Source: an uncultured Actinomycetota bacterium
GTDB lineage: Bacteria > Actinomycetota > UBA4738 > HRBIN12
Length of the DNA: 64,000 bases
Assembly (NCBI GenBank): GCA_963784055.1
Contig: CAWAPY010000018.1
Location: 69,444 to 133,443 of the forward strand
Direction of reading: 5' to 3'
Shown: piece after piece, positions 20,591 through 45,560 of the stretch
Position numbering within the stretch: position 1 is the stretch's first letter
Layout: every line of letters starts with the position of its first letter
Notes under the pieces: generated by a model
What the model was told of the DNA's origin: nothing
Database searches by the model: none
The model's input: only the letters and a program-made list of their open reading frames with translations
Translations under genes and position numbers: made by a program

Positions 20591-20595
20591 CCGCT
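20579..20595. repeat. 17-bp direct repeat CTCCCGGGGGCACCGCT (left copy; includes the 3' end of tRNA-Arg)
   Basis: An identical 17-mer occurs at 21860-21876. The two copies directly abut the IS element. Confidence 0.85.
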
Positions 20596-21859
20596 GTGAT
20601 GTCTCAGAGCATCGTGGACGGATGTGTCGGGGCATCGTAGCCGGGACACGTCATCCCTGCGGTTGGTAGTCGCGGTCGGGTCGAGCGGGTGAACGCGCAG
20701 CAGCTCACCATCGGTGGAGAGCACGCGCACGTCGAGGTCGTGCACGAGCATGATCACGCGTTTGCCTCGGTGCCTCGCACCGATCCCGATGTGATGCAGC
20801 TTGGTCCGGTGACGAAGCGTCAGCCGACCGTGCTTGTCGATCCGGTCCTGCCGCACCCGCACGCCGGCACCGACGACGATCTTCGGTCCTGCCGGCCGCG
20901 CTTTGTCCCGGGCCTCGAAGACCACCAGGGCGGGCGCCCCGTAGCCCGGTGCGGCCGGACCTCGTTGTAGTAGGCGACGAACCGATCGACCTGGGTCTGG
21001 AGCACCGCGATCGATCGAGCCGCTGGCTGCTTGGCGAGGAAGGCCTTCATCGTCTGGTGGAACCGCTCGACCTTCCCGCAGGTCTGGGGGTGGTAGGGAC
21101 GGGAATGGCGGTAGTCGATGCCAAGGGCGAGCAGCTCGGTCTGCATCACGTTGGGTCCGCCCCGGTGCCAGGTCGTGTAGACGCAGCCGTTGTCGGTGAG
21201 CAATGCGGCCGGGAACCCCCAGGCGTGCACCGCGCTCTGGAAGACCCGCAGCACCGCTGGCGCGGTCGCGCTGGCCAGCACCCGAGAGGCGACCGCCACA
21301 CGCGAGTGGTCGTCGATGAAGTTCACGATCTCGACCTCGGCGCCATCGGCCAGGCGCCAATGGGTCACGTCGGACTGCCAGCACTCGTTGGGAAGCTTGC
21401 TTCGAACCGGATCCACGAGCTCCGGGGCCGCTTGTGGGGCTGCGGGGTGACGAAGCCCCGTCGCCGGAGAACCCGCCAGATCGTCGAGACCGAAGGTACC
21501 TGCTCGTGCCGCAGACGAGGTGGTAGCGGATCGTCTGAGCGCCGGCATCGAGGCCGAGCTCGGCGAGCTCCTTGCGGAGGGCGACGATCTCATCCTCCAG
21601 GGCATCGGGCGTTCGATGCGGGATCCGCTTGGCGGCGCGCGATCGCGGCTCGATCGCTTTGTAGCCACCCTCGCGGAACCGGCCCACGAGCTTGCCGACG
21701 TAGCTCTTAGACACCCCGTGGGCCGAAGCGACCTCCCGGTAGCTGCGGCCCTCGAGCACCACGGCTTCCACCACGTAGCGAGCCAGATCCATCGCAGACC
21801 CCCGTCGTCGGTGTCCACGATGCTCCGACACAGGTGTCCACTATCCGGTGAACTCCCAG
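20596..21859 (-). mobile_element. IS481-family insertion sequence (about 1.26 kb) inserted immediately 3' of tRNA-Arg
   Basis: Imperfect terminal inverted repeats of about 50 bp. Core motif TGTGTCGGrGCATCGT at 20623-20640 and, as reverse complement, at 21811-21832. Single DDE/rve transposase. Flanked by the 17-bp direct repeat. Confidence 0.8.
20651..21792 (-). pseudogene. IS481-family transposase (HTH plus rve integrase core); about 4 frame breaks as assembled
   Basis: MDLARYVVEAVVLEGRSYREVASAHGVSKSYV...; PSVSTIWRVLRRRGFVTPQPHKRPRSSWIRFEAS (third frame); LPNECWQSDVTHW...DDHSR...LTDNG...HPQTCGKVERFH...YNEVRPHRA; C-terminus ...DRDYQPQG* ending at 20651. The track ORF that runs on into the tRNA is an artefact. 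Confidence 0.8.
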
Positions 21860-21876
21860 CTCCCGGGGGCACCGCT
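21860..21876. repeat. 17-bp direct repeat CTCCCGGGGGCACCGCT (right copy)
   Basis: Identical to 20579-20595. Confidence 0.85.
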
Positions 21877-26727: not shown

Positions 26728-29287
26728 ATGAGCGGAACGGCGACGATCGTCCTCCGCGACGATGGATCCGGCAAGCTGCTCGTCGCGGCGCTCGCCCTCG
26801 CTGCGGCGCTCGTTTCGTTCGGCGTGTGGAGCGTCCCCTCGATGAACGTTGCTCGGCCCTGGACGCACGCAGAGCTGCCGACGGAGCGCCTCCTTGCCAC
26901 TCAGGTCCCACTGACGTTCACCGAATCGCCGGACGACGGGTACGTCGCCTTTGGGTCGGGGTCTCGGTTCCGATTCCGTGACGGCGGAGTCTCGATCGGC
27001 CTTCCCAACGGCCGCGGGGCGACGCTCGCCCTGACCTTCATCGGAGGGGAGACCGTTCGTCCGGAAGCCGAAGTCAAGCTACCCGGAACCATCAACCGAT
27101 TCGTCGGCCGGGATGCCGCCGCCTGGCAGGTCGGACTCACGACGTACGAAGAGATCGCGTACCGCGACGTGTGGCCGGGGGTCGACATCGTCTTCCGTGG
27201 AGATGCCGGATCGCTCAAGTACGACGTCGTGCTGAAACCGGGCGCCTCGCTGAGCGACGTGCGACTTCGATACGAGGGGGCATCAGGGCTGCGAGTCGAA
27301 TCCGATGGCGATCTCATCGCCGATGTTACGGGCGGGCACGTGATCGACTCGGCGCCCTTTGGGACGCAGCGGATGGACGGAGCAACCGCGCGGGTGGCAA
27401 CCCGTTTCGCGCTCTCTCCCGGCGCCCCCGATGAGTTCGGATTCTCCACCCCAGACGGGTTCGACCCGACACGAACGCTGGTCATCGATCCGGGGATCGT
27501 CTACCGAACGTCCCTCGGAGGAGCCGACTTCGATCAGACGGCCGCCGTCGCCGTGGGGCCTGACGGGAGCCTCTACATCGCGGGCCGGGGCGCGGCGGCG
27601 TGGGGGACGCCGACGACTCCCGGCGCCTACGACGAGACGTACAACGGACACATCGATCTCTTCGTCGCGAAACTCGACGCGACCGGCACGTTGATCTACT
27701 CGACGTTCATCGGTGGCGAGGACGACGGCGAGCATGTGAACGACCTCGCTCTCGGTGCCGACGGGAGTGTCTACGTCGCCGGCTTCGGTTTCTCGACCGG
27801 ATACCCGACGACCCCGGGGGCATGGAACGACGACTACATGAGCTTCGACGGTTACGGGCTCTTGACGAAACTGGGTCCCACCGGGTCCTCGCTCGACCTA
27901 CTCGACGAGGCTCCCCGGAACGAGTAAGGCGTATTCCGTCGCGGTCGACGACGAGGAGCGCGCCTACGTCACCGGCATCGCTCTCGAGGATTTCCCCGCA
28001 ACGCCGGGTGCGTGGGACGAGACGCCGAGCGGTCAAGGGAACGACGGCCTCGACGACGCATTCGTGGTGAAGATGCGACGCGATGGGTCCGGACCCCTCT
28101 ACGCCACGGTCGTCGGTGGGTCCGAATATGACTACGGCCACAGCATCGCGGTCGACGCGACCGGAACTCCGGTCGTGACGGGGTACACGGGCTCGTTGGA
28201 CTTTCCCACGACCGCCGGCTCGTTCGACGAGACCGACGACGTCTGGAACGACGTCTTCGTTACGAGGCTGAACGATTCCGGTTCGGACGCCCTCTACTCG
28301 GGCCTGCTGGGCGGCAACGCGGACGAAAACGTATGGGCGATCGAGCTCGCGCAGGACGGCTCCGCGTACCTGGCAGGGGAGACGATGTCGAGCGACTTCC
28401 CGACGACTCCGGATGCAGCCGACGACACGTTCGACGGCTCGAGCGATCCGCTGAGCTTCGCGCGCGATGCCTACCTGACGCGGATCTCGGCGGACGGCTC
28501 GTCGATCGAGTACTCCACCTTCCTCGGAGGTGGGACCGACGACTACGCGCTCGCGATGACCATCGAAGGCGACGACGTCTACGTCGTCGGCGAGACCGAC
28601 TCGGACGATTTCCCCACGACCGACGGGAGCCAGCGGGAGAGCCCGATCGCCGGGTTCCTCGTTCAGTACGAGGGCGGCACGACGCCGGTCTACTCGTCGA
28701 TCGTCGGCGACTTCCCGCGCGGCGTCGCCGTCGATCGCGCGGGAACCGTCTATCTGGCGATCACCGTGCCGGCCACCGATACCCCGCTCCGTTCGATGTC
28801 GATCGCCGCAGCCAGGCGTGAAGGGGTGGCGACGGCCTCGAGACGGACGCACGCGTGCACGATCGAGGGCACCCCGGGCGACGACAACCTGGTGGGAACA
28901 CCCGGGCCGGACGTGATCTGCGCGGCATCAGGGGACGATACGGTGAGCGGTGGTGGCGGAGCCGACGTGATCTACCTCGGCAACGGAAAGGACGTCGTTG
29001 ACGCGGGGTTCGGAGTCGACGCGGTCTTCGGGGGACCCGGCGGCGACCGGATTCCGGGGCGGAGCGGCCAAGATCTCCTCCTCGGGGGCGACGGCGCAGA
29101 CCTCCTCATCGGCCTCGACGGGTCCGACATCCTTCGAGGCGGCGAGAACGCGGACGTCCTGCGAGGTGGATCGGGACGCGATCGCCTCAGCGGTGGGCCC
29201 GGGTCCGACGTGCTCAATGGCGGCTCGCACCGCGACTCCTGTTCCGGAGGTCCGGGGGTCGACAGGCTTCGCGACTGCAACCCGTGA
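26728..29287 (+). pseudogene. Large secreted protein with SBBP beta-propeller repeats and C-terminal RTX (hemolysin-type Ca-binding) repeats; one frame break near nt 27895
   Basis: AGGAGG upstream of ATG 26728, with an N-terminal TM/signal. Repeated ...AVAVGPDGSLYIAGR / LALGADGSVYVAGFGFSTGYPTTPGAW / SIAVDATGTPVVTGYTGSLDFPTTAGSFD. C-terminus GDDTVSGGGGADVIYLGNGKD...GGDGADLLIGLDGSDILRGGENADVLRGGSGRDRLSGGPGSDVLNGG. Confidence 0.75.
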
Positions 29288-29377: not shown

Positions 29378-31608
29378 CTAGGCCCACGCGAAGGCGCGGG
29401 TCTTGGCGCGGCGGATCCCGCCTGGTCCGATCCCGGCTACCCGGCATGCGATCCGGTGACCGTGATCACGGGGTCGGAGGTGGTAGTCGGTGCCGGTTTC
29501 GCCGGCGAGCAGGACGCCGTCTCGGAGCCAACGGAACGAGTACCGGGCCGCATTCCTCCATGCACCGCGACGAGCTTCCAGGATGTGCGTCCCGGGAAGC
29601 TGGACGAGTCGTGGCCTTCGGATGTTCCGCGGGGCGGGGATGAGTCGATAGACCCCTGCTTTCCTGCCGGTGTCCACCCCAACGTAGACCGGCTGGGCGG
29701 CGTCGTTCGTCAACCCGGTGTCAACGGTGGGTCCCAGCGCCCCCACGGAGAACGACGGACCGGTCTCGACGTGTCGGGACCACGTCAGACCACGATCCGT
29801 GCTGAACCAGAGCCCACCGAGATCGGTGCCGGCGTACACCATCGCGGGATCGTCTCGGTCGATCGCCAGCGACGTGACGTTCGATGCCCGGCCCGAGGGG
29901 TCGACCCATGCCATCGCCCAATGGCTCCCTCCGTCGGCCGAGCGGAAGACACGCGAGCCTTGCTGACTGCCTGCGACGATCCGGGTTGGAGATCCATCGA
30001 ATACGAGCGCCTCGATCGTATCGGGAGGCTGAACGACCCGCGTCCACGAGGTCCCGTCATCATCCGAGATGAACATCTTCGAGACATCAGCGTCGGCGAC
30101 CTGGACGATGATGTGTCCGCCCTCCATCCGTGCGAACGCGACCACAGGGAGCAGCGTCGGACCGAGAGGTTCCCACGAGGCACCGCCGTCCGTGGATCGA
30201 TAGATCTGGCCGGTCTCCAGCGGGAATCCTCCATCTCGGACGGCCGCAAAGAACTTGTCGGGCGTCGACGGATCCCCCACGAGCTGGTCGATGATCGATC
30301 CGCCAGGCAGATCGCCGGTCGGTGTCCAGTTGACCCCATCGTCGCTCCTGAGGAGCGGCTCGAAGGTCGGGTCGTTCGGTACCGACGGAAGTCGCGCGAC
30401 GAGCGTGGTCCCTGCCGCATCCACCGCAACAGCCGTCGGGAAGACCTCCGAATCGGGACGGGCGGGATCCCCGATGAGGCCCGTGCGGTCGACCCACGTA
30501 GCCGACGCATCGGTCGTTTCGAAGAGGGAGAAGGTGTCGACCGCGAAGGCGCGCCGGCCGTTGCCTGGGTCGACGGCGATCGCCGTGAGCGTCGTCGCCG
30601 CGAGGCCTTGATTCGTGTTCGCCCACGTAGCTCCGCCGTCGACGGAGGTGAACACGCCGCGCCCGAAGGTGCCGACCACGACGTGCTCGGGATCCTGATC
30701 GGTGGTCCGGACGAAGGGCGAGCCAAGAACGGGGGCGGTCGCGTTCCAGGTATCCCCACCATCGATGCTCCGAGCAACGTAGGCGTCGTAGCCGGTGAGG
30801 CCGGCGACGTAGATCAGGTCGGGATCGGCAGTGGACAGAGCGAGGGAGAAGACCTCGCCCGCTGGTTGCGAAGGGATCGGATCGAACGAGAGTCCACCAT
30901 CGAGGCTCCGATAGACCAACTGATTCAGCGCATAGACGATCTCACTGTCGGCACGATCGAAGACGAAGGTGCTGGTGCCGAACGGGAGGTCGCCGATGGC
31001 GACCTCCACCCATGTGTCTCCCGCATCCAGGGACCGGAACGTGCCTTCCGTGGAGGACATGAGGACGATGTCAGGATCGTCTGGGTCGATCGCCACACCG
31101 AACACCTGATCCTGACGTGTAGCGGTCCCACGTTCGTCCACCGTCGAAACTGCGATGCCCATCGCTGAAGATCTGAGACGGTCGAGACTCCGCGATGTCG
31201 ACAGCGCTCGATTCGATGAACGCCGAAGAGATCCCAGTGGAGACCATCGTCGGTGCTCTTGAACAACCCGCCATTCGTGCCCACCCAGATCACGTTGGGA
31301 TGAGTGGGATGGACAGCGAGAGCCACCGCGAAGAGATCCGTGAGGCCCGTCGATCGCCTCTGCCATGAGATGCCGCCGTCACCACTGCGGAAGACGCCAT
31401 TCCGAGTGGCTGCGTAGACGACGGTCTCATCCGTCGGGTCGAGAGCCAGGTCTGGACGACGCCTCCGAATGGTCCTCCGGTCGACCAGGTACCGATGGGA
31501 GCTCCCGTTGCCACCTCGTCCACGCTGGATACCAGGAGCGAGATGGCGGCGAGGAGAACGGACCGACCGAAGGATGGTCACTCGATGGTGCAACGCACGA
31601 CCAAGCAT
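29378..31608 (-). pseudogene. Secreted BNR/Asp-box repeat protein (sialidase/GH74/Sortilin-Vps10-like propellers); at least 4 frame breaks, all in the first ~500 nt
   Basis: At least 10 S-x-D-x-G-x-T-W boxes (RSLDAGDTW, RSIDGGDTW, TSVDGGATW, RSTDGGASW, SDDDGTSW, RSADGGSHW, STDRGLTW...). The N-terminal 160 aa are spread over three frames (31608-31100). Confidence 0.7.
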
Positions 31609-33098: not shown

Positions 33099-34982
33099 TC
33101 ACAGCCTGCCGGGCAGCGGCAGGAGATCGGCCACGGATCCGTCACCGAACGAGGGGGCGGGATGAGGTGTCTCCACGTCCGGGAGCCAGACCTCGAGCGT
33201 GGTTCCCTCGTCCGGGAGGCTCCACAGCTTGCACCAGCCACCGGCCATCTCCGCCCGTTCCTTCATGGCGGCCAGACCGAGGTGACCGGGCGCCGCCACC
33301 AGGGCATCCTGGGGCCTGAACCCGACCCCGTCGTCGGCGATCTGCATCCACGTGCCACCCTCTCGGCGCTCCAGGCTCACGGACACGCGCTCCGCACCCG
33401 AGTGCTTGCGGGCGTTCGTGAGGGCCTCCTGCGCGATGCGGTACAGGATGAGGGAGCTCCAGATCGGGAAATCGTCATCCGGGCCTTCGTCCACCGACCA
33501 TTCGAACGGCCAGGTGGACTGCTCGAGCATGAAGCGAAGCGCCGAGGCCAACCCCTGCTCCTCGAGCGTGGGCGGGCTGAGGTCGAACAGGAGCGTGCGC
33601 ATGCTCTTGATCGCCACCTGCATGACGGAGAGCGCCTCATCCATCTCCGCCGGCTCGGGATGGTTCCTGCGGAGCATCTCGAGCCGCATCTTGAGGGCCA
33701 CCATCTTCTGGACCGGGTCGTCGTGGATGTCGTGGGAGATCCGGGTGCGCTCGTCCTCGGCCGCCCGAACCACGTGCTCGAGGAGCTGCTTGCGTTGCTC
33801 GCCGATCTCCTGCAGTTCCTTGACCAGGCCCTGCAGCTCATCGGTCCGCTTCGCCACCGTGGCTTCCAGGGTGGCGTTGTGCGCGCGCAGCTGCTGCTCG
33901 AGACCCTGGATGACCCGGAGCTGGGATTCGCGTTCCTCGGTGAGCCACGCGTTGTGCAACGCGAGCGCCCCGTGTTCGGCGAACTGCTCCACCATCTCGA
34001 TCACCCATCGACGCTCGGTGGGATGGCCGTCGCCGCGTTCCACGACGACGGCGCCCAGTCCTTGGCGGCGGTCACGGAGGAGCGGCACGACCACCACGTT
34101 CCGGGCATCGGGGACCAGCGACGCGATGCGAGGGTCCGTCTCCGGGTCGATCGACCGCAATAGCTGGCTCGCGCGCTCCTGCCACGCTCGGGACACGGCC
34201 CGATCGACGCCGACGGCGACGTCGCTCGGCGATCCCTCACCGACCCAGGCGAGGAGCTCGAGGTCGCTGTGGGGTGAAGCGAGGATCACCCCGCGCCTGA
34301 ACCCGAACGTGGAACAGAGCTCGTCGAGGAAGGTCTGCGCGATGGTCTGGACGTCGGGGTCGGTGTCCAGCTCCGCGACCATCACGGAGAGCCTGAAGAG
34401 GTCGTGCTTCTGTCGCCGGAGCTCGCGCTCGCTGACGGCCGAGAAGAACGCCGTGCCGAGAGCGAGTGCCCATAGGCCCGCGACCACGAGTCCTGCCCCC
34501 TGTCCCAGGGCCGCCCCCACCTCGCCTTCTACGAACCCGACGCGAGCGGCTTCGACGGCGAGGAGGAAGAGCAGGGTGTGCCAGAGGGCGATCTTCAGCC
34601 CGGTCCGATACGAGAGCAGCAGCGTGACGCCGACGATGTGCACGCCGGGCAGGAGGAGGAGCGCTTCCGCGCTCCCGCCCGTCCGCGCGATCACGATCGC
34701 CAGGAAGATCCCGTCCACCAACAGCGACCCGTTGAGGGCCGGGCCGGCGGCGCGACCGCCCCGCGCCACGATCACCGCGCTCGATGCGGCGCACGCGAGG
34801 TACAGGACGACGGCCACGGAGACCTGTGCACTCGACACGTCGTCGGAGGCGAGCGTGGTCGCGATGACCACGCCCGCGAGACCGAGGCGGAGACCCGAGA
34901 GGTACCGGCTGCGCTCGGTGAGCGACAGCAGCTCCACCGCTTGGGTGGCCACCCTCCGACGCGCACGAGGAAGGGCGATCAC
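33099..34982 (-). CDS. Sensor histidine kinase: multi-TM input, GAF, HisKA_3, HATPase_c (NarL-partner type)
   Basis: GTG 34982 overlaps the stop of the upstream gene (GTGA). About 6 TM segments. GAF-like region (TFLDELCSTFGFRRGVILA...). H-box AAEDERTRISHDIHDDPVQ. N/G boxes YRIAQEALTNARKH...DDGVGF...GHLGLAAMKERA. The track's 843-aa ORF over-extends the N-terminus. Confidence 0.8.
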   Translation of the reverse strand: MIALPRARRRVATQAVELLSLTERSRYLSGLRLGLAGVVIATTLASDDVSSAQVSVAVVLYLACAASSAVIVARGGRAAGPALNGSLLVDGIFLAIVIARTGGSAEALLLLPGVHIVGVTLLLSYRTGLKIALWHTLLFLLAVEAARVGFVEGEVGAALGQGAGLVVAGLWALALGTAFFSAVSERELRRQKHDLFRLSVMVAELDTDPDVQTIAQTFLDELCSTFGFRRGVILASPHSDLELLAWVGEGSPSDVAVGVDRAVSRAWQERASQLLRSIDPETDPRIASLVPDARNVVVVPLLRDRRQGLGAVVVERGDGHPTERRWVIEMVEQFAEHGALALHNAWLTEERESQLRVIQGLEQQLRAHNATLEATVAKRTDELQGLVKELQEIGEQRKQLLEHVVRAAEDERTRISHDIHDDPVQKMVALKMRLEMLRRNHPEPAEMDEALSVMQVAIKSMRTLLFDLSPPTLEEQGLASALRFMLEQSTWPFEWSVDEGPDDDFPIWSSLILYRIAQEALTNARKHSGAERVSVSLERREGGTWMQIADDGVGFRPQDALVAAPGHLGLAAMKERAEMAGGWCKLWSLPDEGTTLEVWLPDVETPHPAPSFGDGSVADLLPLPGRL

Positions 34983-35638
34983 GCGAACGTCACCACGTCG
35001 GATCTGATCGGGGCCAGGGAGAGCCGCGGATCGTTGCGGTCGAGCCGATCCTGGATCGCCGCGAACGCGAGGGTCAATCCGAACAACGCGAGGACGATGG
35101 CCAGACTTCGAGCGACGGCGCCGATGGCAGCGCGCACACGTTCGCGTCCCTCCAGGGGAGATCCGGTCGCATCGGCAACCGGATGCGGGACCACGACCGG
35201 TGCGAAGACCCGGCCGATCTCCGGCCGCTCGTGGATCCGCGGACCCGCGACTGTCAACCGTCCCTCGATCCGGGCGACCTGAGGGTTCCGGCCCGCCCTG
35301 GTGCGCGCCGGGCTGACCTCCACCACCGTTGCCGGGGCCTCCCGGCGGCTCGGGCTGCTCTCCCCCGACACCGTCGATCACATCGTCAACCGTGCCGAAG
35401 ATCGTGTCGACGATCGGGTCCACGACCTCGTCGACCGGGTCGAGCACATCGTCCACGGGCGTCTCGATACGCACCCACCGTGTCCTCCACGAGACCCACC
35501 CCGTCGTCGACGGTTTCCTCGACCAGCACACAGCGGGTCCAAGAGCGGACACGCTGCCTGCGCCGACGCGGCCCCCGTGGCGACGATCGCGATGGTCGAC
35601 ATCACGACCAGGGTCGAACGAGCGATCCACCTGTTCAC
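34979..35638 (-). pseudogene. Unknown secreted, C-terminally membrane-anchored protein (paralog A of 39521..40138); 2-3 frame breaks as assembled
   Basis: GGAGGTG lies 5 nt upstream of GTG 35638. VNRWIARSTLVVMSTIAIVATGAASAQAACPLLDPLC (frame of 35378..35782). ETPVDDVLDPVDEVVDPIVDTIFGTVDDVIDGVGG...PPGGPGNGGGG (frame of 33099..35630). AVARSLAIVLALFGLTLAFAAIQDRLDRNDPRLSLAPIRSDVVTFA (34979..35371). Confidence 0.55.
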
Positions 35639-36010
35639 GGTGTCACCTCCGGGATGGTCGACCTGCTGGGAAGGCCTGGCTCTCTCATGGCGGTCCTTTC
35701 CGTCTCCCTGGTGTATCGGCTCCAGGACGCCTGTAACCCAATAGCCATCGGGGTTCATCTCCTGGTCATCCCCGGACCGCATCGCCGATCCATCGCAGTA
35801 GGGCGCCGGACAACTGCGACCCCAACCGGCCGTGGGGGGAAACCCGCAGATGAGCTGCCAGCGTGCTCGTGCAGGGGAAGGGTGGCCTCCGGATCAGTCT
35901 GCCTTCTCGGTTCATCGACAGTCGATATTGGTTGTGCGGCACAACGCCGTTACCGTTCGCGTGTCGGATATGCGAAACAGCTGAGAGGAAGATCCCGATC
36001 ACACGAGCCG

Positions 36011-37420
36011 GTGCAGGGGGTGGCACGATCGGCGACGAGTGGGACCTCGAAGCCAAGTATCGGACACTCCTCGAGCAGATCCCCGCGATCGTCTACGTGT
36101 GGAGCGTCGCGGGCGGGCTCGAGCGGATGTCCGAGGAATACGTCAGCCCGCAGATCGAAGCGACGCTGGGGTTCGGTCCCCACGAATGGCTGGAGAATCC
36201 GCGATTGTGGATCGAGCGCCTCCATCCTGACGATCGCGACGAGGTCCTGGACGAGACGGCCCGGAGCGTCGAGGCGGGAGAGCCGTTCAAGCTCGAGTAT
36301 CGGATGGTCGCTCGCGACGGGCGCGTCGTCTGGCTCCACGACATCGCGTCGATCGTCGCGTACGACGATGGTGGGAGAGCGGCGCGATACCAAGGGATCC
36401 AGTTCGACGTCACGGCCCGGAAGGAAGCCGAGCACGCCCGGCGACGTCGATCACGAGCGGGTCAGGCTCCTCGACCGCCAGCGCCAGGATCTCGTCCATC
36501 GGCTGGTCGCGGCGCAGGAAGACGAGCGGCGCCGCATCTCCGACGGGATCCACGACGACACGCTGCAGGGCCTCTTCACCGTCCGCACTCGATTGGAGAC
36601 GATCATCCGCGGGCATCCGGGATCGGAACACACCGAGGAGTTGCCCGGCGTACGTGATGAGATCTCGAGGCTCGTGGACAGCCTCCGGCGTCTGGCCTTC
36701 GAGCTGCATCCACGCGTCCTCGACGCCGAGGCGCTGAAGGCATCACTCTGGTTCCTGATCGAGCGGGCGCGAGAGCACGGCCTCGAAGGGGAGCTCGAGG
36801 ATCGGCTCGAAGCGGAGCTTCCCACGCAGGTGTGCCTGACCGTCTATCGGGTGGCACAGGAGGCGCTGCGCAACGCGGATCGCCACGGCGAGGCCTCCAG
36901 CGTGACCATCTCACTGGACGACCGAGCGGGCGGCGTGGCGATCCGCATCCACGACGACGGCCGGGGCTTCGACGTGGGGGCGCCGCAGGGCGCCGGGGGC
37001 GAGCACCTCGGGATCATCTCGATGCAGGAGCGCTCGGAGCTCCTGGGCGGATGGCTCCAGGTGGAGAGCGAACCCGGGCGGGGCACGACGATCGAATGCT
37101 GGCTGCCCCTGTCGGAGACGACCGGGATACCTCCTCAAGGTTCCTCCCCCGATCAGGAGACGGCGGACGCGAGCCATGTCCGAACCGGGAACGAGCGGAT
37201 CGCAACGGCGCCGGAGCTCAACGACCTCTCTCCGCGTGAGCGCGAGGTCGCAGATCTCCTTTCACTCGGGCACACCAACTCGGAGATCGGCGCGATCCTG
37301 CACCTCTCGATCAGGACCGTCGAACACCATCGGTCTCGCGTGTTCCGCAAGATGAACGTTCGATCGCGCGCCGGTCTCGTCCGAGCACTGCGGGAACGGC
37401 GCGCAACGGATCTCGGCTGA
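36011..37420 (+). pseudogene. PAS - HisKA_3 - HATPase_c histidine kinase fused to a C-terminal LuxR/GerE HTH (no receiver domain); at least 1 frame break near 36420; start uncertain
   Basis: PAS (YRTLLEQIPAIVYVW...PFKLEYRMVARDGRVVWLHD...GIQFDVTARKEAE) is in the 35863 frame. H-box AAQEDERRRISDGIHDDTLQ, YRVAQEALRNADRH, DDGRGF, GIISMQERSELLGG are in the 35183..37420 frame. These are followed by LSPREREVADLLSLGHTNSEIGAILHLSIRTVEHHRSRVFRKMNV. Confidence 0.7.
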
Positions 37421-37527
37421 GCACCCGAGGAACCAGATAGGGCACTTTCCGCCCTACTGGGAGCGGCCGCCCGTCTCTACGCTTCGGTGAGCGATCTCGA
37501 TCGACGATCTCAACGGAGGAGGACGTC

Positions 37528-37974
37528 GTGATGACAGGGATGCGTGTACGTGTCGGGGCGATCGTCGCTGTGCTCGGGGTCGTCCTCCTGGTGGGATCGT
37601 GGCTCCAGCCCGCGACCGCACACATCGGAGCGCCGGGGCACCTCTGGACGGCGCATCTCAGGCCGAAGGCCGACGTCCGGTACCTGCAGAACACCAAGGT
37701 GTACGTGTCTCCCGTGTTCACGGTCACCGCGCTCTCGGACGGATCGGTCACGCGCCTCTGTCCCACCGGATGGCAAGCGATCGGCGGCGGGGTCGACTTC
37801 GAGAACGCGAACGCGGAGGTCCGCGTGATCTCGAACGCGCCGGTCGTCGAGGGCGCGGGCCTGTTCGCCGCCGACGAGGGGAAGAACCCTGCGGCTCAGG
37901 GGTGGCGGGTCACGATGCGCAACACCGGCATCCTGAGCGTGAGCGGGGTCGTCGGGGTGATCTGTTCCAGCTGA
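37528..37974 (+). CDS. Small secreted hypothetical protein (148 aa), predicted mature N-terminus His
   Basis: GGAGGAGG upstream of GTG/ATG 37528/37531. Signal peptide ...VVLLVGSWLQPATA|HIGAPGHLW. C-terminal CPTGWQAIGGGVDF...VICSS. Confidence 0.55.
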   Translation: MMTGMRVRVGAIVAVLGVVLLVGSWLQPATAHIGAPGHLWTAHLRPKADVRYLQNTKVYVSPVFTVTALSDGSVTRLCPTGWQAIGGGVDFENANAEVRVISNAPVVEGAGLFAADEGKNPAAQGWRVTMRNTGILSVSGVVGVICSS

Positions 37975-38242
37975 CGCTCCGCACCCCTGACTCCTGAGCT
38001 CGGGTACCGCGTCGCCACTCCGAGCACGGCCCTTTGGCCCCCGGCCGATGCGCGCCTGTCGGTCGGACGAGCGAGGGTTGGACGCACGGCCCGTCTGGTC
38101 ACGGCGAGTCACCCGAGTTTGACGCGAAGGGACCATCGTCCCAGGTCACGCATATACCGATACCTCGTTCCAGGTAGACACGGGAGACGCCCGGATCGGC
38201 CTCGATGAGGCTTCGGGCGGCTCCAGACGGAAGGGAGCGGGA

Positions 38243-39524
38243 GTGAGCCAAGCGCGGAGTGCCTCCGGGACGGTCGAAGACCCGATCCGTGTCCTCGTCG
38301 CCGATGACGAGGAGACGGTCGTCGACGTCCTCCGCGCACTCATCGGATTCGGATCCGTCCCTCCACTTCGTCGGGGCAGCCAACAACGCCGAGGATGCGA
38401 TCGAGATGACCGCGCGAGAACGCCCGGACGTCGTCCTCCTCGACGTGCGGATGCCGGGCGGCGGAGGTCTGCGGGCGACCCGCGAGATCACGAAACGGTG
38501 CGCGCCGACGAAGGTCGTCGCGCTCTCCGCGCACCAGGACTCCGACACGGTGATCGGGATCGATCAGTGCGGGGGCGAGTGGGTACGTTCCCAAGGGCGA
38601 TCCGACGGAGAAGATCCTGCGGACGATCCATCGAGCGATGGATGCGGACTACGTCGCGGAGGAGTCGGGGCCGAAGCTGACGCTGGTCTCCCCGATGCTT
38701 CCTCGTCGCACGCAGCAGCGGACCGCGGTGGCCCGAGCGAATCCTCGACGGGGTGATCACTGCCGAGTTCGAGCCGATCGCGGAGCTCGCCACCGGCCGG
38801 ATCGTCGGCCTCGACGCGCATCCGCGCGTGGCGACGCTCCCGCATCGCTCCTACGACGCCTGGCTGGCCGATGCCGAAGGCGCCGACCTCCTCCTCGACT
38901 TCGAGCTGTCCGCGTTCCGAGCCAGCGTGTCGGCCTTGCCGGTGATCCCCGAAGACCTGTTCGTTGAATTCGAGGTGACACAGTCGACCGCGACCGAGGG
39001 AAGGTTCCGCCGTGCGATCCGAGGGTCGGTCGCCCCGCGGGTCGTGCTGGGGTTCTCGCCCCTCGCGCCCGCGGCCGCGGCCGAGCTCGAGGCCGCTGAC
39101 CCAGGCGGGATCCTGGCGACGCTTCGCGCGCGCGGAATCCGCGTCGCTGCGAGGGACGCCGGCCCCGGGTTCGAGAGCCTTCGGCATCTCTCCAACCTCT
39201 CTCCCGACCTGGCCAGGCTCGATCCGACGCTCATCCGGAGCCTGGGACAGACCTTCTCGAGCCATTCCGTCGTCGCCGCGGTGGTCGCCTGCGCCGGCGA
39301 CGTCGGGGCCCGACCTGATCGCGCCCGGCGTCGAGTCCGAAGAACAGCTGCACGAGCTCCGGAACCTCGGTGTCGAGCTGGTGCAGGGGCCGATCGTGGG
39401 AGAGCCGATCCCGTTCTCGGAGCTCCCCGGGGAGCCCGGGATGTGGGACGCGCCCAAGGCGTTGGCGCGTGGCGAGGGTCTCGTCGCGCAGCCGAGCCCC
39501 TCGACCCCGGATGGTGCCCTGTGA
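38243..39524 (+). pseudogene. Response-regulator receiver fused to a degenerate EAL-like domain; about 4 frame breaks as assembled
   Basis: GAAGGGAG upstream of GTG 38243. REC: IRVLVADDEETVV...PDVVLLDVRMPGGGG...KVVALSAHQD...AGASGYVPKG. EAL-like: ITAEFEPIAELATGRIVGLDAHPR, but FEVTQS in place of NVS, LGFS in place of ELTE, ARDAG in place of DDFG, APGVES in place of AEGVE, QGP in place of QGY. Confidence 0.7.
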
Positions 39525-40138
39525 GTCGCCGGAGCCGGCGCCTCTCGTTGATCGCGGTCGGCACGCTCGCCTTCGCGCTCACCGGGCAGCCGTCCGCGAA
39601 CGCGGCCTGCCCTGTGCTGGACGCCGCCTGCCAGGCCGGCGAGGTGCTCGGCGCCGGTGAGGGACTCGCGAAGGACACGACCGAGCCGGTCGACACTCCG
39701 GTCGACGGTACGGTCGACCCGATCGTGGATGACGGCCTGGGCCGGATCCGCGACCTCCTCGGAGGGGGTCCGATCGATCTCCCGGACCCGACCGATGAGC
39801 CCGGCGGTGGGCACCGCGGGACCGGCCCCCGGCCTCCCGGCTCTCCGGACTCCAGCGGGAGGGGTATCGGGGGCAGGAACCCCGACGGCCCCGGGTTCGA
39901 CGCCGTGTTCGGCCCGATCATCTCGGCCTCCTCCGGGATCGCTCCTCCCGAGCGTGGGGACCGGTCGACAGGGAGCACCTTCGGGGACGCTCTCGGAGGC
40001 GTGGCGCGCAGCCTGGCGATCGTGCTCGCCCTCTTCGGGCTGGCCGTCGCATTCGTCGCGATCCAGGATCACCTCGACCGGAACGACCCGAGGCTGGCGC
40101 TCGCGCCGGTCGACTCAGACGTGGTGGAGTTCGCATGA
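39521..40138 (+). CDS. Unknown secreted, C-terminally membrane-anchored protein (paralog B of 34979..35638)
   Basis: GTG 39521 overlaps the upstream stop (GTGA). Its own stop overlaps the downstream ATG (ATGA, 40135-40138). VSRRSRRLSLIAVGTLAFALTGQPSANAACPVLDAACQ...EPVDTPVDGTVDPIVDD...G/P-rich...GVARSLAIVLALFGLAVAFVAIQDHLDRNDPRLALAPVDSDVVEFA. Confidence 0.6.
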   Translation: MSRRSRRLSLIAVGTLAFALTGQPSANAACPVLDAACQAGEVLGAGEGLAKDTTEPVDTPVDGTVDPIVDDGLGRIRDLLGGGPIDLPDPTDEPGGGHRGTGPRPPGSPDSSGRGIGGRNPDGPGFDAVFGPIISASSGIAPPERGDRSTGSTFGDALGGVARSLAIVLALFGLAVAFVAIQDHLDRNDPRLALAPVDSDVVEFA

Positions 40139-41363
40139 GCATCGGACGGATCCGGCTGATGCTCGCCGACGACGAAGCGTCCATCCTCGAAGCGATGAGC
40201 GAGCTCGTGTCGATGGACAAGGAGATCGACGTGGTGGGGACCGCGCGGGACGCCGGCGAGGCGATCGACCTCGCCGAGCTCCACGCGCCGGATGTCGCCC
40301 TGCTCGACGTCCGGATGCCCGGCGGTGGCGGCAGCCGCGCCGCACGCGAGATCCGTCGACGGTCGCCCGAGACCCGCATCGTCGCCCTGTCGGCCAGCAC
40401 GGACCCCAGGACCGTCGCCTCGATGGTTCGGGCGGGTGCCGTGGGATACGTGGGCAAGGATCAGCCGGCCGACGAGGTCCTCCGCGCGATCCATCGCTCC
40501 GCCGACGGACGCGCGAGCCTCGCGGTCGATCGATCTGGGCGAGGTGGCGGAGCGGCTCGTCGAGCAGCAGACACGCGATGTCGTCCGCGTCGCGGAGCGG
40601 ACACGCGTCTCGGCGGCGCGGATCGAGGAAGCGATCCGCGGCGACATGATCCACACCGTGTTCCAGCCCGTGGTCGATCTCAACGACGGCCGCATCCTCG
40701 GCGTGGAAGCGCTCTCGCGATTCCTCTCCAAGCCCAGACGTCGATCCCGAGACCTGGTTCGCGGAAGCTGCGGATCAGGGACTGCTGGCGCGGCTCGAGC
40801 TCGCGACCGCGACCCAAGCGCTCGGGCACCTGGATGCTATCCCCGAGGGTGTGTACCTCTCGGTGAACGTCTCTCCGGAGACGCTCCGTGAACCCCGACT
40901 GGCGGAGCTCTTGCGTTCGATCCCGGCGCGGCGTGTGGTGATCGAGCTCACGGAGCGCTCGCCGATCGTGGACTACGAGGAGACGAACGCGCGCCTAGCC
41001 GAGCTCCGCGCGCTCGGCTGCCGGCTCGCGATCGACGACGTCGGGAAGGGGTTCTCCGGACTCGCGCATGTCGTCGAGCTCTCGCCGGATCTGTTGAAGT
41101 TCGACCGGAGCCTCGTCAGTGGCGTCGACGCCGACGAGCACAAGAGCGCCCTGATCGCGCGACTGAGCTCCTACGCGGACCAGGTCGAGATGGAGGTCAT
41201 CGCCGAGGGGATCGAAACCGCCGGGGAGCTCGAGACCCTCCGTGGGCTCGGCGTGGGAGCCGGACAAGGATTCCTTCTCGGACGACCCGGTCCGATCCCG
41301 TCGATCGCGGATGGCACCTGGGGATGGCCCCTGCGCCGCAACCCCTGGGCAGTTCGCCACTGA
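40135..41363 (+). pseudogene. Response-regulator receiver fused to a canonical EAL (c-di-GMP phosphodiesterase) domain; 2 frame breaks (about 40525 and about 40735)
   Basis: REC: IRLMLADDEASIL...PDVALLDVRMPGGGG...IVALSAS...AGAVGYVGKD. EAL: FQPVVDLNDGRILGVEALSRF, SVNVS, IELTE, AIDDVGKG, LKFDRS, IAEGIE, QGFLLGRP. Confidence 0.8.
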
Positions 41364-41436
41364 CCCGGTACGGGGGCACGAGGACCCGGCCACCGTTGGA
41401 CTCCAGCCGCCCGTCGTTGCTGTCGATGACAACGGG

Positions 41437-41875
41437 GTGAGGGACGATCAACTCAACAGTGACCGCGAGGCGATCTTCGCGGAACTCCTGGCGGCTTTCG
41501 GGCGCCGTGACAACGAGGTGATCCTCGCCGCGATGAGCGGAGACGTCGTCCTCGAGCTCCCCGGGACCTCAGCGCTCGCCGGCACCTATCGAGGCATCGA
41601 TGAGGTGGGACGATTCGTGAGCCAGTTGCGGTCGGTGCTCGACACGGGCCAGCACGAGGTCTCCTTCGAGCACGACGGCGACCAGATGCTCGATCCGCCA
41701 CCAGGTGGCCGTCCACGGCCCCCAGCACGTGGCCGGGATGATCCTCTTCCAGCGGTTCACGTTCGACGCGCCGAGCGGGAAGATCGTGTCGATCACGGTC
41801 GAGCCGGAGGACCGGGGGCTCTTCGACTACGTGGTCCACACCGCGCTCTCGGACGACACGGTTCCCTCTTCATAA
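41437..41875 (+). pseudogene. NTF2/SnoaL-like small protein; one frame break near 41690
   Basis: SDREAIFAELLAAFGRRDNEVILAAMSGDVVLELPG...YRGIDEVGRFVSQLRSVL, then ...VAVHGPQHVAGMILFQRFTFDAPSGKIVSITVEPED in a second frame ending TAA 41875. Confidence 0.5.
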
Positions 41876-42032
41876 GGCTTTCCGCACCGGTCGCGACCGA
41901 CCTCACCGAGAGGCGATCCCTCGTGATCGCGCCTCGTGCTCGATCGATCGATCTTCGCTGTGACCACCGCCTACAGGCAGACCCCTCAGACGCCGAGGAG
42001 AGGAGAAACACCCTCGCGAGGAGCCGGTCAGA

Positions 42033-44672
42033 ATGGGATCGAGTTGGCGGACGCGCTCGAAGCGCTGCAGCCCTATGTCTACGGGGGCTTGTTCCTCGTC
42101 GCGCTGATCCAGTGGCGCCGGCGGCCCGGGCGATCGAGCCTCTGGCTCGTGGCCACCTTCGGCGTGCTCGCGGCCGTCGTGCTCGCAGGGGCTGATCCTC
42201 CCCGAGGATTCCTCGGATCCCGCGATGGAGTGGGCCGGCCGGGCGCTGATCGCCGTCCTCGTCCTGTTCCCCTACTTCCTCTACCGGTTCACGACGACGT
42301 TGCTCCGACCGATCCCCTGGGTGAACGTGACGGGAACGGTCCTCACCGCCTCGATCGCGATCATCGCGTTCCTGCTCCCTTCGTTCCCCGACGAGGACGC
42401 CCCGCCGCCGCGCTGGGTCGGCATCTTCATCATCGCGCTCCTGACCCAGTGGGTCTTCCTCTCCGCCGTCGTGGCGATCCGCCTGTGGAGGGCCGGCAAG
42501 GGACAGCCGACCGTGGCTCGCCGGAGGATGCGGACGATGGCCCTCGGGGCGACCGGACTCGCGCTGGCGCTGGTGGTCGCGGGCCAGTTCTCCGGAGGGG
42601 AAGGGATCGCCGACGTGTTCTTCGGGCTGCTCGTCCTCGGCGCGGCTCCGCTGATGCTGATCGGCTTCGCTCCCCCACGGGCGCTCCGGATGGTGTGGCG
42701 CAGGCGGGAGGAAGCCGAGCTGCGCGAGGCCGGACACTCGCTGATGGAAGCGATCACGACCCAGGAGGTCGCTCGCATCCTGCTCCCCCATGCCCGGATC
42801 CTCCTCGGCGCCGAGGTCGCCAGGCTCGAGGGTGAGGACGGGGAGATCGTCGCGAGCCTGGACGCGAACGGAGACCCTACACGCCGGACACCGATCCCGA
42901 GGGCGAACAGACGTCGCAGGACGGACTCGAGCGCCCGATCGTCCGGGTTCCGATGCGGAAGGGTCAGCTCGTCGTGCACTCGAGCCCGCTGACCCCGTTC
43001 TTCGGGGACGAGGAGCTGTCCGAGCTGCAGGAGCTCGCCGCCCTGGCAGATCTGGCGATCGCGCGGAACGAGCTCCTCGATTCCCAGCGCACGCTCGCCG
43101 CGATCGTCCAATCCTCGGACGACGCGATCATCTCGAGGACCCTGGATGGCACCATCACGAGCTGGAACCGCGGGGCGGAGAAGATCTACGGGTACGAGGC
43201 CGATGAGGCGGTCGGCAGATCCATCTCGATGCTCGACCCGCATGGGTACGACGACGCGGAGATCATGGAGAAGATCCTTCGTGGCGAGAGCACCGATCAC
43301 TACGAGACGGAGCGGCGGACGAAGGAGCGGCCAGTCGATCCACGTCTCACTCACCATCTCTCCGATCAAGGAAGCCGACGGCACGATCTCCGGCGTGTCC
43401 GTTGTCGCGCGAGACGTGAGCGAGCGTCGCCGACTCGACGAGGAGCGCGCAGCCGCGCACGAGGAGGCCGATCGCGCGAATCACGCCAAGAGCGAGTTCC
43501 TGTCGCGGATGAGTCATGAGCTCCGCACGCCCCTGAACTCGGTGCTGGGCTTCGCCCAGCTGATGCAGATGGAGCCGATGGCTCCCAAGCAGGAGGATGC
43601 GACCCGGGAGATCCTGAAGGCGGGCACGCATCTGGTCGAGCTGATCGACGAGGTGCTGGACATCGCACGGATCGAGGCGGGGAAGCTCCGCCTGTCCCTC
43701 GAGCCGGTGGATGCGGTCCTCGTGATCGAGGAGTGCATCTCACTCCTCGGACCGCAGGCCGCCCAGGAGGGCGTCACGCGTGGCGATGGACGGTCCCGCG
43801 GCCAAGATCGGATCGACCTACGTCATCGCCGACCGCCAGCGACTGAAGCAGGTGTTGCTGAACCTGCTCTCCAACGGCATCAAGTACAACCGGGAGCACG
43901 GCACCGTCACGGTCTCGATCGAGCGCACCGCCGAGGGGAGCCGGATCAGGATCGACGTCTCGGACACCGGTCGTGGGATCCCGCCGGAGCGCCTCGACCG
44001 CCTCTTCTCTCCGTTCGAACGCCTGGGGATCGAGGGGACGGGGATCCAGGGAACCGGCCTGGGGCTCGCCCTCACCAAGCCGCTCGTCGAGGCGATGGGT
44101 GGCACGATCGAGGTCTCGAGCGAGCTCGGTCGCGGGAGCAGGTTCAGCCTGGAGCTCGCCTCCGCCGATGCGACCGCGATCGCCGAGAGCGTCGCATCGG
44201 ACGACCACCACCTGGTCGCATCGGTCGTTCCTCGGACCCGAACGTCCTCTACGTGGAGGACAACCTCGCCAACCTCAAGCTGATGGAGCGGATCCTCGAG
44301 CGCCGGCAGGGCATCCAGCTGATCTCGGCGATGCAGGGAAGCCTGGGCGTCACGCTCGCGCGCGACCATCAGCCTGACCTGATCTTCCTGGACCTCAACC
44401 TGCCGGACATGGGCGGCCAGGAGCTCCTCGGCCGCCTGAGTGCCGATCCGAGGACCGCGGACCTCCCGGTCGTGGTGATCTCGGCCGACGTGACCGCGGG
44501 ACAGCACGCGAGGCTGGTCGACGCCGGCGCTCGTGACTTCGTCCCGAAACCGTTCGACGTCGAACGGTTGCTGCGGATCGTCGATGAGTTCTGTGGCACG
44601 GCCGTCAACGCGGGTGCCCAGAACGGGTCCTCGAACGGCGAGGCGCGGCCGTCGATCCACCCGAGCTCCTGA
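42033..44672 (+). pseudogene. Hybrid sensor histidine kinase: multi-TM, GAF-like, PAS, HisKA, HATPase_c, REC; at least 5 frame breaks as assembled
   Basis: TM region (42044-42700). PAS LAAIVQSSDDAIISRTLDGTITSWNRGAEKIYGY. H-box FLSRMSHELRTPLNSVLGF. N/G boxes LLNLLSNGIKYN, DTGRGI, GTGLGLALTKPLVEAMGG (43780..44283 frame). REC VLYVEDNLANL...DLIFLDLNLPDMGG...VVVISAD...KPFD. Confidence 0.75.
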
Positions 44673-44685
44673 CCGTTCGGCGGGA

Positions 44686-45560
44686 TCACTCTGCGCGCCC
44701 GCGGCCCCCGGACGATCCGCTCTCGGCATCGGACATCGGCTCCACCACGAAGCGGTCGCTCGCGATCCGTTGCGGGGCCTCGCCTGCGACCTCGAGGGCC
44801 GACTCGAGCGAGAAGAGGTCGTCGATGGACAGCGGCAACGGCGCTTCGTCAGGCTGGTACGTCGTCCCCAGCTCGTACAGCTCACCCGTCGCGCTCATCT
44901 CGATGTGCCCGCCCAGGATCTGCCGGACCGGCTGGCCCCGCGATCGCCGTCTCGCGCGCGAAGCGCGCGAGACGGCGGATGCTCTCGCGGTAGGCGCTCC
45001 AGTCGCGGACGGTGAGGGTGCCCGGGAGCAGCGCATCGCCACTCAGGAGCAGCCCTCGCGTCCGGTCGAACAGGATCACGTGATCGTCGAGGTGGCCCGG
45101 GGCCGGGATCACATCGACGGGTCGTTCGCCCAGGTCGAGCGTGGTCCGGCCCTGCGGCCAGTCCTCGATCCCGAAGAACCCCGCGACGCCGGCCGCCCCG
45201 ATCGGCGCGATCGATCCGGCCGCGAAGGTCGGTGAACTGCGCATCGCCCGCGCGATGGTCGCCGTGGCCGTGCGAGTGGGTGATCGTCAGCTCGAGCGGC
45301 CTCGCCCCGAGCAGCTCGTCCACGGTGCGCCGGATCGGGAACAGGTCCGCGTCGGCCGTCGCACCCGTGTCGTGGAGCAGGGCGCGCTCGGAGCCCATCA
45401 GCAGGCACAGGAAGGGCGCCTCGAAGTTCACGCACTTGCTCTGGCGGATGACGAACGTGTCGTCGTGGGCCGCCACGACCTGGAGCGGCGGATCGGTCGA
45501 GTGCTCGCAGTCCGGCGAACCGTGGATCCACTTCACCTCATCGAGGTCGGTCGTCTCCAT
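44686..45560 (-). pseudogene. MBL-fold metallo-hydrolase; 2 frame breaks
   Basis: ATG 45560. HSHGHGDH (HxHxDH). PAPGHLDDHVILFD and the C-terminal third are in two other frames. Confidence 0.7.

Follow-up and report, generated by a model that had tools for sequence, protein, structure and literature searches.

A family of C-terminally anchored proteins encoded beside six-helix GAF signalling proteins in uncultured Actinomycetota

Signal perception by sensor kinases that have many membrane helices and no external domain is a long-standing gap, and the kinase PilS with the pilin PilA is among the few worked examples. Of the kinases relevant here, LiaS and VraS are HisKA_3 kinases, RegB is a redox/quinone sensor, and PhoQ uses an acidic extracytoplasmic surface to sense cations or cationic peptides. 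According to PMC6058289, which cites Kilmury and Burrows 2016, the six transmembrane (TM) segments of PilS bind PilA directly. PilS, RegB and the ammonia sensor GrtK all fall under the Pfam family PF25323 (6TM_PilS), whose domain itself perceives the signal (PMC12918730). There is also ample documentation of accessory membrane proteins that provide input to intramembrane-sensing kinases or modulate them (PMC8534201; for YycH/YycI, PMC7355866), and the stimuli of PhoQ are listed in PMC8534201. In this study we analysed a 64,000-nucleotide (nt) stretch of DNA (hereafter the window) from an uncultured actinomycetotal bacterium (GenBank assembly GCA_963784055.1, contig CAWAPY010000018.1, forward strand, positions 69,444 to 133,443), in which two small anchor proteins, copy A and copy B, are encoded among genes for two-component signalling and cyclic di-GMP (c-di-GMP) turnover (Table 1). 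The theme of an accessory membrane protein acting with an intramembrane-sensing kinase is already known. What is new here is a large family that none of the curated libraries searched contains, which combines a short conserved C-terminal TM-tail adaptor with exchangeable ectodomains, and whose partner is a PilS-like six-TM (6TM)-GAF protein with either kinase or diguanylate-cyclase output. We are nearly certain that this kinase-linked family is real and previously undescribed.

That copies A and B are paralogues is clear from their BLASTP match (E 2e-38, 44% identity), although their identity is unevenly distributed, being about 35% in the ectodomain and 38 of 46 residues in the TM helix and tail. 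The first-pass annotation had described a common architecture for the two proteins, and every element of it was found in both copies and in the 28-43 homologues that were aligned: a signal peptide with an invariant A-x-A, a C-x3-D-x2-C loop (C-x6-C), an acidic V/D/P-rich tract (net charge of the ectodomain -20 for copy A and -12 for copy B), a Gly/Pro-rich stretch followed by one strongly hydrophobic helix, and a tail of the form QD[RH]LDRNDPRL[AS]LAP..SDVV.FA. Several short ectodomain motifs (CPxLDxxC, DTPVD, VDPIVDD, DLPDP and GGGxH) are also kept among the aligned homologues. As judged by its computed hydropathy (2.7-3.0), the C-terminal helix is a predicted membrane anchor, and the proteins are predicted to be type-I single-pass proteins with a cleaved signal peptide, the ectodomain outside and the C-terminus inside. 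A chance likeness between low-complexity proteins was rejected on the basis of the E value given above and because the best-kept part is not of low complexity. The proteins do not appear to be lipoproteins either, since a lipobox of the L-[AS]-[GA]-C type is missing and A-x-A is kept throughout; the first Cys of distant members comes 1-4 residues past A-x-A (as in ADETC and ADDVC), and position -3 relative to this Cys is occupied by N, H, Q or S and not by L, V or I.

Both genes are tightly coupled to signalling genes, and all three 4-nt overlaps mentioned in the first-pass annotation were read in the sequence. The TGA of copy A (34981-34979) overlaps the GTG of the kinase (34982-34980). The GTG of copy B (39521-39523) overlaps the TGA (39522-39524) of the upstream gene REC-EAL1 as GTGA (39521-39524), and the TGA of copy B (40136-40138) overlaps the ATG (40135-40137) of REC-EAL2 as ATGA (40135-40138). 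The base composition of the window (64-73% G+C) is of the actinobacterial type.

The two proteins had been said to belong to no assignable family, and the searches of Pfam-A 2025, NCBIfam r20 and the PDB sequences agree with this. Copy B gave no match better than E 0.12 in Pfam and NCBIfam, none of 43 full-length relatives had a significant match in Pfam, and 63 C-terminal modules had none in NCBIfam (best E 0.019, with scattered matches). PDB sequence profiles, searched with single sequences as well as alignments, gave nothing below E 0.2. A first protein search returned 256 homologues of copy B from metagenomes and from metagenome-assembled genomes (MAGs) of Actinomycetota/Actinomycetia; none carried a Pfam domain, and those named by their source were all 'hypothetical'. 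An Rfam scan of the window detected one tRNA only, and no RNA element is involved.

The part that defines the family is the C-terminal TM helix with its tail, and not the acidic ectodomain. The consensus of this module consists of about 20 hydrophobic residues followed by F-x3-Q-D-R-L-D-R-x-D-P-[KR]-L-A-L-A-P-V-x4-6-F, in which F, Q, D, D, P and L are invariant in an alignment of 63 sequences; the tail measures 22-27 amino acids (aa) and is acidic or neutral (net charge 0 to -4). A profile built from the module of copy B and run exhaustively against 1.84 billion cluster representatives found 1,935 proteins at E <= 1e-3, of which 1,054 reached E <= 1e-10. In nearly all of the 150 matches listed out of these 1,935, the module lies at the C-terminus or no more than about 30 residues from it, and the few exceptions (P0317 and P0358) look like fused or read-through gene calls; the proteins bearing the module measure 60 to 1,013 aa. 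The second of these is a 119-aa fragment in which one open reading frame (ORF) runs from an anchor tail into the N-terminus of a 6TM partner, and it represents a natural fusion or else an artefact caused by an indel. Word-indexed searches with the module and with the TM domain of the kinase returned mostly short gene calls and told little about the diversity of the ectodomains; one of the proteins, P0128, proved to be the end of a 229-aa ORF in locus L034.

Different ectodomains are joined to this same module. The anchor protein of L027 (849 aa) carries an NHL propeller and fn3 domains, that of L032 (1,592 aa) NHL and immunoglobulin (Ig)-like domains, and those of L025, L031 and L033 long acidic repeats. 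Other long members carry Big_13, Big_6 and Big_3 arrays (P0297 and P0298 are Big_13/Big_6 arrays), and one member has been named 'Ig-like domain-containing protein [Acidimicrobiales bacterium]'. Among the 95 representatives of at least 150 aa, an N-terminal signal-like segment was seen in 69 and the C-x6-C loop in 33, and their ectodomains are typically acidic and rich in Gly and Pro. Both paralogues are under purifying selection. Within the clade of the window the ratio of nonsynonymous to synonymous substitution rates (dN/dS) is 0.04-0.23 for the module as against 0.24-0.77 for the ectodomain in both paralogues; the module of copy A alone gives 0.05-0.23, and the whole of copy B 0.26-0.46.

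To describe the gene neighbourhood of the family, 30 loci from species-representative genomes (all from uncultured Actinomycetota) and 80 metagenome loci were annotated with our own profiles. The linkage count comprises 97 distinct anchor genes drawn from 118 loci, 86 of which have enough downstream DNA to be assessed. A 6TM-GAF gene lies directly downstream in 77 of the 86, a REC-EAL gene follows in nine that are of the copy-B type, and no other downstream neighbour was found in any of the 86. A 4-nt overlap between the stop of the anchor gene and the nearest in-frame start of the 6TM gene was counted in 50 of the 66 pairs that could be measured. The linkage of the homologues to signalling genes, which the first-pass annotation had proposed as a check, is therefore conserved. 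The annotation had also suggested that the protein is a dedicated third component coupled to a kinase or a receiver. This stands with regard to the 6TM-GAF partner but not with regard to the REC-EAL receivers, since coupling to a receiver as a conserved feature of the family was ruled out by its confinement to the clade of the window.

The kinase beside copy A had been called a GAF-HisKA_3 kinase, and six hydrophobic segments followed by GAF, HisKA_3 and HATPase_c domains were indeed found. The hydrophobic segments fall within aa 28-184 with loops of at most about 20 aa and no extracytoplasmic domain, and this is the single 6TM gene in the 64-kb window. Relatives of the partner protein connect its membrane domain to the PilS type: the partner in L036 scores 31.8 bits against PF25323 (gathering score 27), followed by L037 with 25.4, L038 with 18.2 and L031 with 14.6 bits, and the kinase homologues P0386 and P0387 carry PF25323. 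Comparison by hhalign of the membrane domain of the window type with those of L036-L038 gave a probability of 99.8% (E 6e-30), and the motifs TGG and SYRTGLK..W are common to both. The output domain of the partner varies: 52 loci have a HisKA_3 kinase and seven have GGDEF (L025, L027, L032, L037, L038, L107 and L115). The anchor thus accompanies the 6TM-GAF input module whatever the output, and since this input part is constant while the output changes, it is the 6TM-GAF part that is indicated as the interacting partner.

We also observed that the membrane domain in L036 (7261-8238 of that locus) has TGGFLSPF after its third helix, where the window kinase has TGGSAEAL. The former resembles the GGxxNPF sequence that we take to be the quinone-binding motif of RegB, and as judged by the sequences, a motif of this kind appears to have been lost in the window kinase.

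The position of copy B between two receiver genes is a lineage-specific outcome of duplication and rearrangement. Distant relatives have a single copy in the order REC-EAL (degenerate), X, 6TM-GAF-HisKA_3 kinase, REC-EAL (canonical), where X stands for the anchor protein and overlaps both of its neighbours by 4 nt; this operon continues with a PAS hybrid kinase and then a REC-HD protein. The copy-B arrangement was found only in the window's own clade (L001, L006-L010 and L039-L042), in which the pair of copy A and kinase lies upstream in divergent orientation. Copy B clusters with the single-copy orthologues in a neighbour-joining tree, in which the branch of copy A is longer and deeper. The simplest history is that X was duplicated in an ancestral REC-EAL1, X, histidine kinase, REC-EAL2 operon and that the segment holding the second X and the kinase was then moved and inverted, after which copy A stayed coupled to the kinase and copy B stayed between the receivers. 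In another lineage, P0245 contains two complete anchor modules in tandem that were joined by the gene caller, so duplication of the anchor gene recurs across lineages.

In the window, copy A is split over three reading frames. Alignment at the DNA level to the orthologue in L001, a syntenic MAG locus with 89% identity to the window over 13 kb, located three isolated 1-nt insertions at 35526, 35471 and 35251, and without them copy A becomes a 218-aa protein bearing every listed feature. The first-pass annotation had made its proposal dependent on such a continuous ORF, and the orthologues of copy A are unbroken in four related MAGs (L001, L007, L008 and L009). Most of the other genes in 35.2-45.2 kb are affected too. 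About 18 frame-breaking indels specific to the window, nearly all isolated +1 insertions, occur in 35.2-45.2 kb (including 35251, 35471, 35526, 36448, 38349, 38561, 38741, 39315, 40533, 41691, 42192, 43328, 43777, 44944 and 45220, with a further one in REC-EAL2 at about 40741), and they also break REC-EAL1 (four breaks), REC-EAL2 (two breaks), a SnoaL-like gene, an 878-aa hybrid kinase (six pieces) and a Lactamase_B gene (three pieces).

These breaks could mean that copy A, the REC-EAL genes and their neighbours are true pseudogenes of a decaying signalling island in the source organism, in which case copy B and the kinase alone would stay functional; such decay would be compatible with any of the readings of the family discussed below. 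The clustering of the indels is in line with this view, as the flanks have only 1-2 indels in about 20 kb of comparable genes (single deletions near 51853 and 54095), and so is the fact that the three insertions checked in copy A are not homopolymer extensions. We nevertheless consider decay unlikely. The changes are almost all isolated +1 insertions, with no large deletions and no in-frame nonsense mutation noticed, genes as unrelated as those for the lactamase, the SnoaL-like protein and the hybrid kinase are broken equally, and a comparison of the window's copy A with its orthologues yields dN/dS values (0.24-0.43) that do not exceed those obtained between the intact orthologues. Comparable isolated breaks are moreover seen in related loci from long-read MAGs (copy A of L006, the kinases of L011 and L019, and the N-terminus of the L001 kinase). 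Because the orthologues are intact, selection is purifying and related long-read loci are similarly broken, we read the indels as probable assembly errors, and 35200-45250 as a region where a long-read assembly was probably not polished well.

When placed beside the described systems, the family shares features with several of them. Two features of accessory proteins, namely an operon shared with a kinase that lacks an extracytoplasmic sensor and a predicted membrane anchor, were found here. The likeness to PilA-PilS lies in a 6TM partner, probably of the PF25323 type, without an external sensor and, in PilS, the binding of a single-pass membrane protein through the six TM segments. On the other hand, X is no pilin, having a signal peptide of the signal peptidase I (SPase-I) type, a C-terminal anchor and a conserved cytoplasmic tail; its partner combines HisKA_3 with GAF, whereas PilS has HisKA and works with the NtrC-type PilR; and the outputs here are REC-EAL or GGDEF, with translational coupling of the genes for X and its partner. 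RegB/PrrB and GrtK probably have the membrane-domain family in common with the partner but lack GAF and belong to other families of the dimerisation and histidine phosphotransfer domain, and we know of no dedicated anchor-protein partner for either GrtK or RegB.

Similarly, YycH/YycI (WalH/WalI) with WalK, LiaF with LiaS and VraT with VraS are cases in which membrane proteins from the kinase operon modulate the kinase through TM contacts (PMC8534201; PMC7355866). However, these proteins have no sequence relationship to X (neither Pfam nor NCBIfam gave a match). In YycH and YycI the anchor is N-terminal and the ectodomain folded and LiaF is polytopic, whereas X is anchored C-terminally, and none of YycH/YycI, LiaF and VraT displays a conserved C-terminal TM-tail adaptor with swapped ectodomains or a pairing with GGDEF. 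The acidic patch of PhoQ is likewise an acidic extracytoplasmic surface, but it belongs to the kinase itself. MgrB, SafA and MzrA are small single-pass proteins that modulate kinases, but they are not co-conserved adaptor families with variable ectodomains.

The reading that we favour, and that we hold to be reasonably likely, is that the anchor protein is a co-sensor which docks onto the 6TM-GAF enzyme and serves as its outward-facing sensor arm. The TM helix and the cytoplasmic tail of about 25 aa would dock onto the (PilS/RegB-like) 6TM-GAF protein encoded directly downstream, and the variable ectodomain would supply or shape the input from outside, since the loops of the partner are short and it has no extracytoplasmic sensor domain of its own. 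The signal would then pass through TM-TM contacts, together with contacts of the tail with the cytoplasmic loops or GAF, to the HisKA_3 kinase; we infer that tail and kinase touch physically. In this locus the kinase would control REC-EAL1 and REC-EAL2, both of which it may phosphorylate as the operon structure suggests, and would lead to hydrolysis of c-di-GMP through REC-EAL2, while in the GGDEF variants the input would be turned directly into synthesis of c-di-GMP. With regard to the stimulus, the acidic, disulfide-looped and disordered ectodomain may report divalent cations, pH, redox or envelope state, a plausible guess drawn by analogy from acidic sensor surfaces like that of PhoQ, which forms the weakest part of the model. 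Because the docking modules of copies A and B are near-identical and there is a single 6TM gene in the window, the two copies probably serve the same kinase. The relationship in general seems to be a one-to-one pairing rather than one enzyme acting on many substrates, since the two anchor genes found in one MAG (L011 and L014) each have their own kinase.

A number of points weigh against the co-sensor reading. Copy B adjoins no 6TM gene. The AlphaFold2 model of copy B (from an alignment of 43 sequences) reaches high confidence in the TM helix at 153-188 alone, with a predicted local distance difference test (pLDDT) score of 90-94; the ectodomain has pLDDT below 50 and is predicted to be disordered, without a recognisable ligand-binding fold, and the tail is of low confidence (pLDDT about 55). 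The membrane domain of the window kinase reaches no Pfam score against PF25323, so that its PilS-like membership depends on profile-profile and transitive evidence. With respect to linkage, the overlap count takes the start nearest to the anchor stop and is thereby biased to short distances, the loci were retrieved by a tail peptide pattern that favours close variants, linkage was read in 118 loci as compared with 1,935 cluster representatives, and the sequences all come from MAGs or metagenomes, part of which contain indel errors; the evidence is throughout comparative and in silico. Operon linkage alone, moreover, cannot tell a co-sensor from a pure regulator or a sensed cargo.

The first of these two, a constitutive regulator or scaffold similar to LiaF or YycH, would hold the kinase off or on, and its ectodomain would be a mere spacer or stability element. 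It accounts for the same linkage data, accessory proteins usually repress kinases while signal sensing by them is mostly unknown (PMC8534201), and the disorder predicted for the ectodomain here fits a spacer. Nevertheless, the ectodomain is under purifying selection (dN/dS 0.24-0.5) and keeps its short motifs, and members with large folded NHL, fn3 and Ig-like domains are hard to square with a spacer, for which reason we judge a pure regulator to be unlikely. Still somewhat less probable in our view is that X is a surface or envelope protein whose pool in the membrane is monitored by the 6TM kinase for feedback, as PilS does with PilA. The partner's membrane domain appears PilS-like, PilS binds PilA directly for autoregulation of pilin (PMC6058289), and the long members resemble adhesins or surface proteins with their Ig-like arrays and NHL domains. 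In contrast, the 4-nt coupling and the presence of one anchor per kinase suggest stoichiometric partners rather than abundant cargo, the output is REC-EAL or GGDEF, hence c-di-GMP and not a transcription factor acting on X, and X lacks pilin features, its signal peptide being of the SPase-I type and its anchor C-terminal rather than N-terminal.

That the TM helix and tail are a sorting or processing signal, with the neighbouring multi-TM protein engaged in processing, is highly improbable: a hydrophobic helix does end secreted proteins with diverse passenger domains here, as in the LPXTG/sortase, PEP-CTERM/exosortase and GlyGly-CTERM/rhombosortase systems, and two members have very weak matches to the VPEID-CTERM model (best E 0.033), but the conserved motif follows the helix instead of preceding it, the long tail is acidic or neutral where those signals have a short basic cluster, none of the 63 members has a significant match to an NCBIfam sorting domain, the pairing with a GAF-kinase or GAF-GGDEF protein is one-to-one, and the 6TM domain is homologous to the membrane domains of sensor kinases.

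Table 1. Positions of the anchor genes, the partner kinase and neighbouring genes in the window
Feature	Position	Strand	Basis or remark
Partner sensor kinase, 627 aa	33099..34982	minus	Pfam GAF, HisKA_3, HATPase_c; GTG overlaps TGA of copy A
Kinase HisKA_3 and HATPase_c	33102-33827	minus	Pfam
Kinase GAF domain	33831-34367	minus	Pfam
Kinase 6TM PilS-like membrane domain	34368-34964	minus	six hydrophobic segments, hhalign
Copy A, anchor protein	34979..35638	minus	218 aa after removal of three 1-nt insertions; alignment to L001
Copy A docking module, TM helix and tail, ...ARSLAIVLALFGLTLAFAAIQDRLDRNDPRLSLAPIRSDVVTFA	34982..35137	minus	own profile ANCH, E 2e-24
PAS_3-HisKA_3-HATPase_c-GerE soluble kinase-HTH fusion	35863..37420	plus	Pfam
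148-aa predicted secreted protein	37528..37974	plus	no Pfam/NCBIfam match
REC-EAL1, response regulator with degenerate EAL	38243..39524	plus	tblastn and profile matches
Copy B, anchor protein	39521..40138	plus	intact 205-aa ORF; 4-nt overlap with the REC-EAL gene on either side
Copy B docking module, TM helix and tail, ...ARSLAIVLALFGLAVAFVAIQDHLDRNDPRLALAPVDSDVVEFA	39980..40135	plus	own profile ANCH, E 6e-26
REC-EAL2, response regulator with canonical EAL motifs	40135..41363	plus	tblastn and profile matches
PAS-HisKA-HATPase-REC hybrid kinase	42044..44669	plus	tblastn with the 878-aa protein of L001

Copy B had been placed between a REC gene with a degenerate EAL domain and one with an ordinary EAL domain, and the catalytic motifs bear this out. 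REC-EAL1 is read in the window as five frame pieces (1-nt insertions at about 38349, 38561, 38741 and 39315) and REC-EAL2 as three (breaks at about 40533 and 40741). In 14 of 16 orthologues of REC-EAL1, EAL is replaced by DAH or DAR, N by E, ELTE by GFSP, DD by RD, K by R and EGxE by PGVx, although the fold of its relatives is still recognised by the Pfam EAL model. In REC-EAL2, by contrast, the EAL, N, E-x-x-E, DD, K, E(GxE) and Q motifs are canonical in all 14 orthologues and in the pieces from the window. Both proteins retain the receiver Asp. As judged by these motifs, REC-EAL2 is predicted to be a competent c-di-GMP phosphodiesterase and REC-EAL1 is probably a non-catalytic paralogue. The degeneracy of REC-EAL1 is itself conserved in orthologues from the range L001-L035 (LGFSPL, LEFEV, RDAGP and APGV), which suggests a selected non-catalytic role, for example in sensing c-di-GMP or binding a partner, rather than decay.

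The soluble PAS kinase fused to a helix-turn-helix (HTH) domain has no REC domain and a frame break near 36350-36450. It was found in the window and L001 only, in the latter split in two by a stop codon; L006-L009 lack it and have about 700 nt between copy A and REC-EAL1. The gene appears to have been inserted where the two halves of the module meet, and whether it belongs to the system is uncertain. The same uncertainty applies to the 148-aa secreted protein, which has an 85% identical orthologue in L001 and lies in the same insertion. The hybrid kinase at 42044-44669, which the window shows as six frame pieces, is conserved downstream of the module in L002-L005. It always follows REC-EAL2 and is succeeded by a REC-HD (HD_5) gene in the single-copy lineages; in the window and L001 the SnoaL-like gene intervenes, and a REC-HD gene does not come after it. 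The hybrid kinase and REC-HD neighbours indicate that the module sits in a larger conserved c-di-GMP/phosphorelay neighbourhood.

Elsewhere in the window, an insertion sequence (IS) element at 20519-21872 encodes its transposase in two overlapping frames (HTH_28/HTH_32, then rve/rve_3). It adjoins tRNA-Arg(CCT) at 20519-20592 within a stretch of lower G+C content (about 64-66%, 16-32 kb). The minus strand carries a SulP transporter fused to STAS and a cyclic-nucleotide-binding domain at 10344-12626, and two large secreted proteins of the beta-propeller type are encoded at 27866-29284 (SBBP and RTX repeats) and 29378-31366 (BNR/sortilin-like).

With regard to its wider meaning, the family would provide natural pairings, about 2,000 in number, between a single-pass protein and a 6TM-GAF transducer of the PilS-like type, and its short conserved docking element, exchangeable ectodomains and two outputs would be material for coevolution analysis, modelling of complexes and domain swaps. 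It would give a name to genes that are now almost all 'hypothetical' (a few being 'Ig-like domain-containing') in abundant uncultured soil Actinomycetota/Acidimicrobiales, would tie the anchor genes to the control of c-di-GMP, and is a candidate for a Pfam/NCBIfam entry. It would also flag a conserved degenerate REC-EAL protein as a likely non-catalytic signalling partner. More tentatively than the docking model itself, and with some doubt on our part, the TM helix and tail may be a universal plug-in adaptor that joins varied extracellular domains to one type of 6TM-GAF transducer writing or erasing c-di-GMP, so that Ig arrays, NHL propellers and acidic disulfide-looped 'antennae' might be interchangeable inputs. 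If so, the family would constitute a modular split receptor for sensing of surface and envelope in Actinomycetota, intramembrane recognition of the PilA-PilS kind would be extended to partners that are not pilins, and, with two paralogous antennae on one kinase, the lineage studied here would integrate two cues from the outside.

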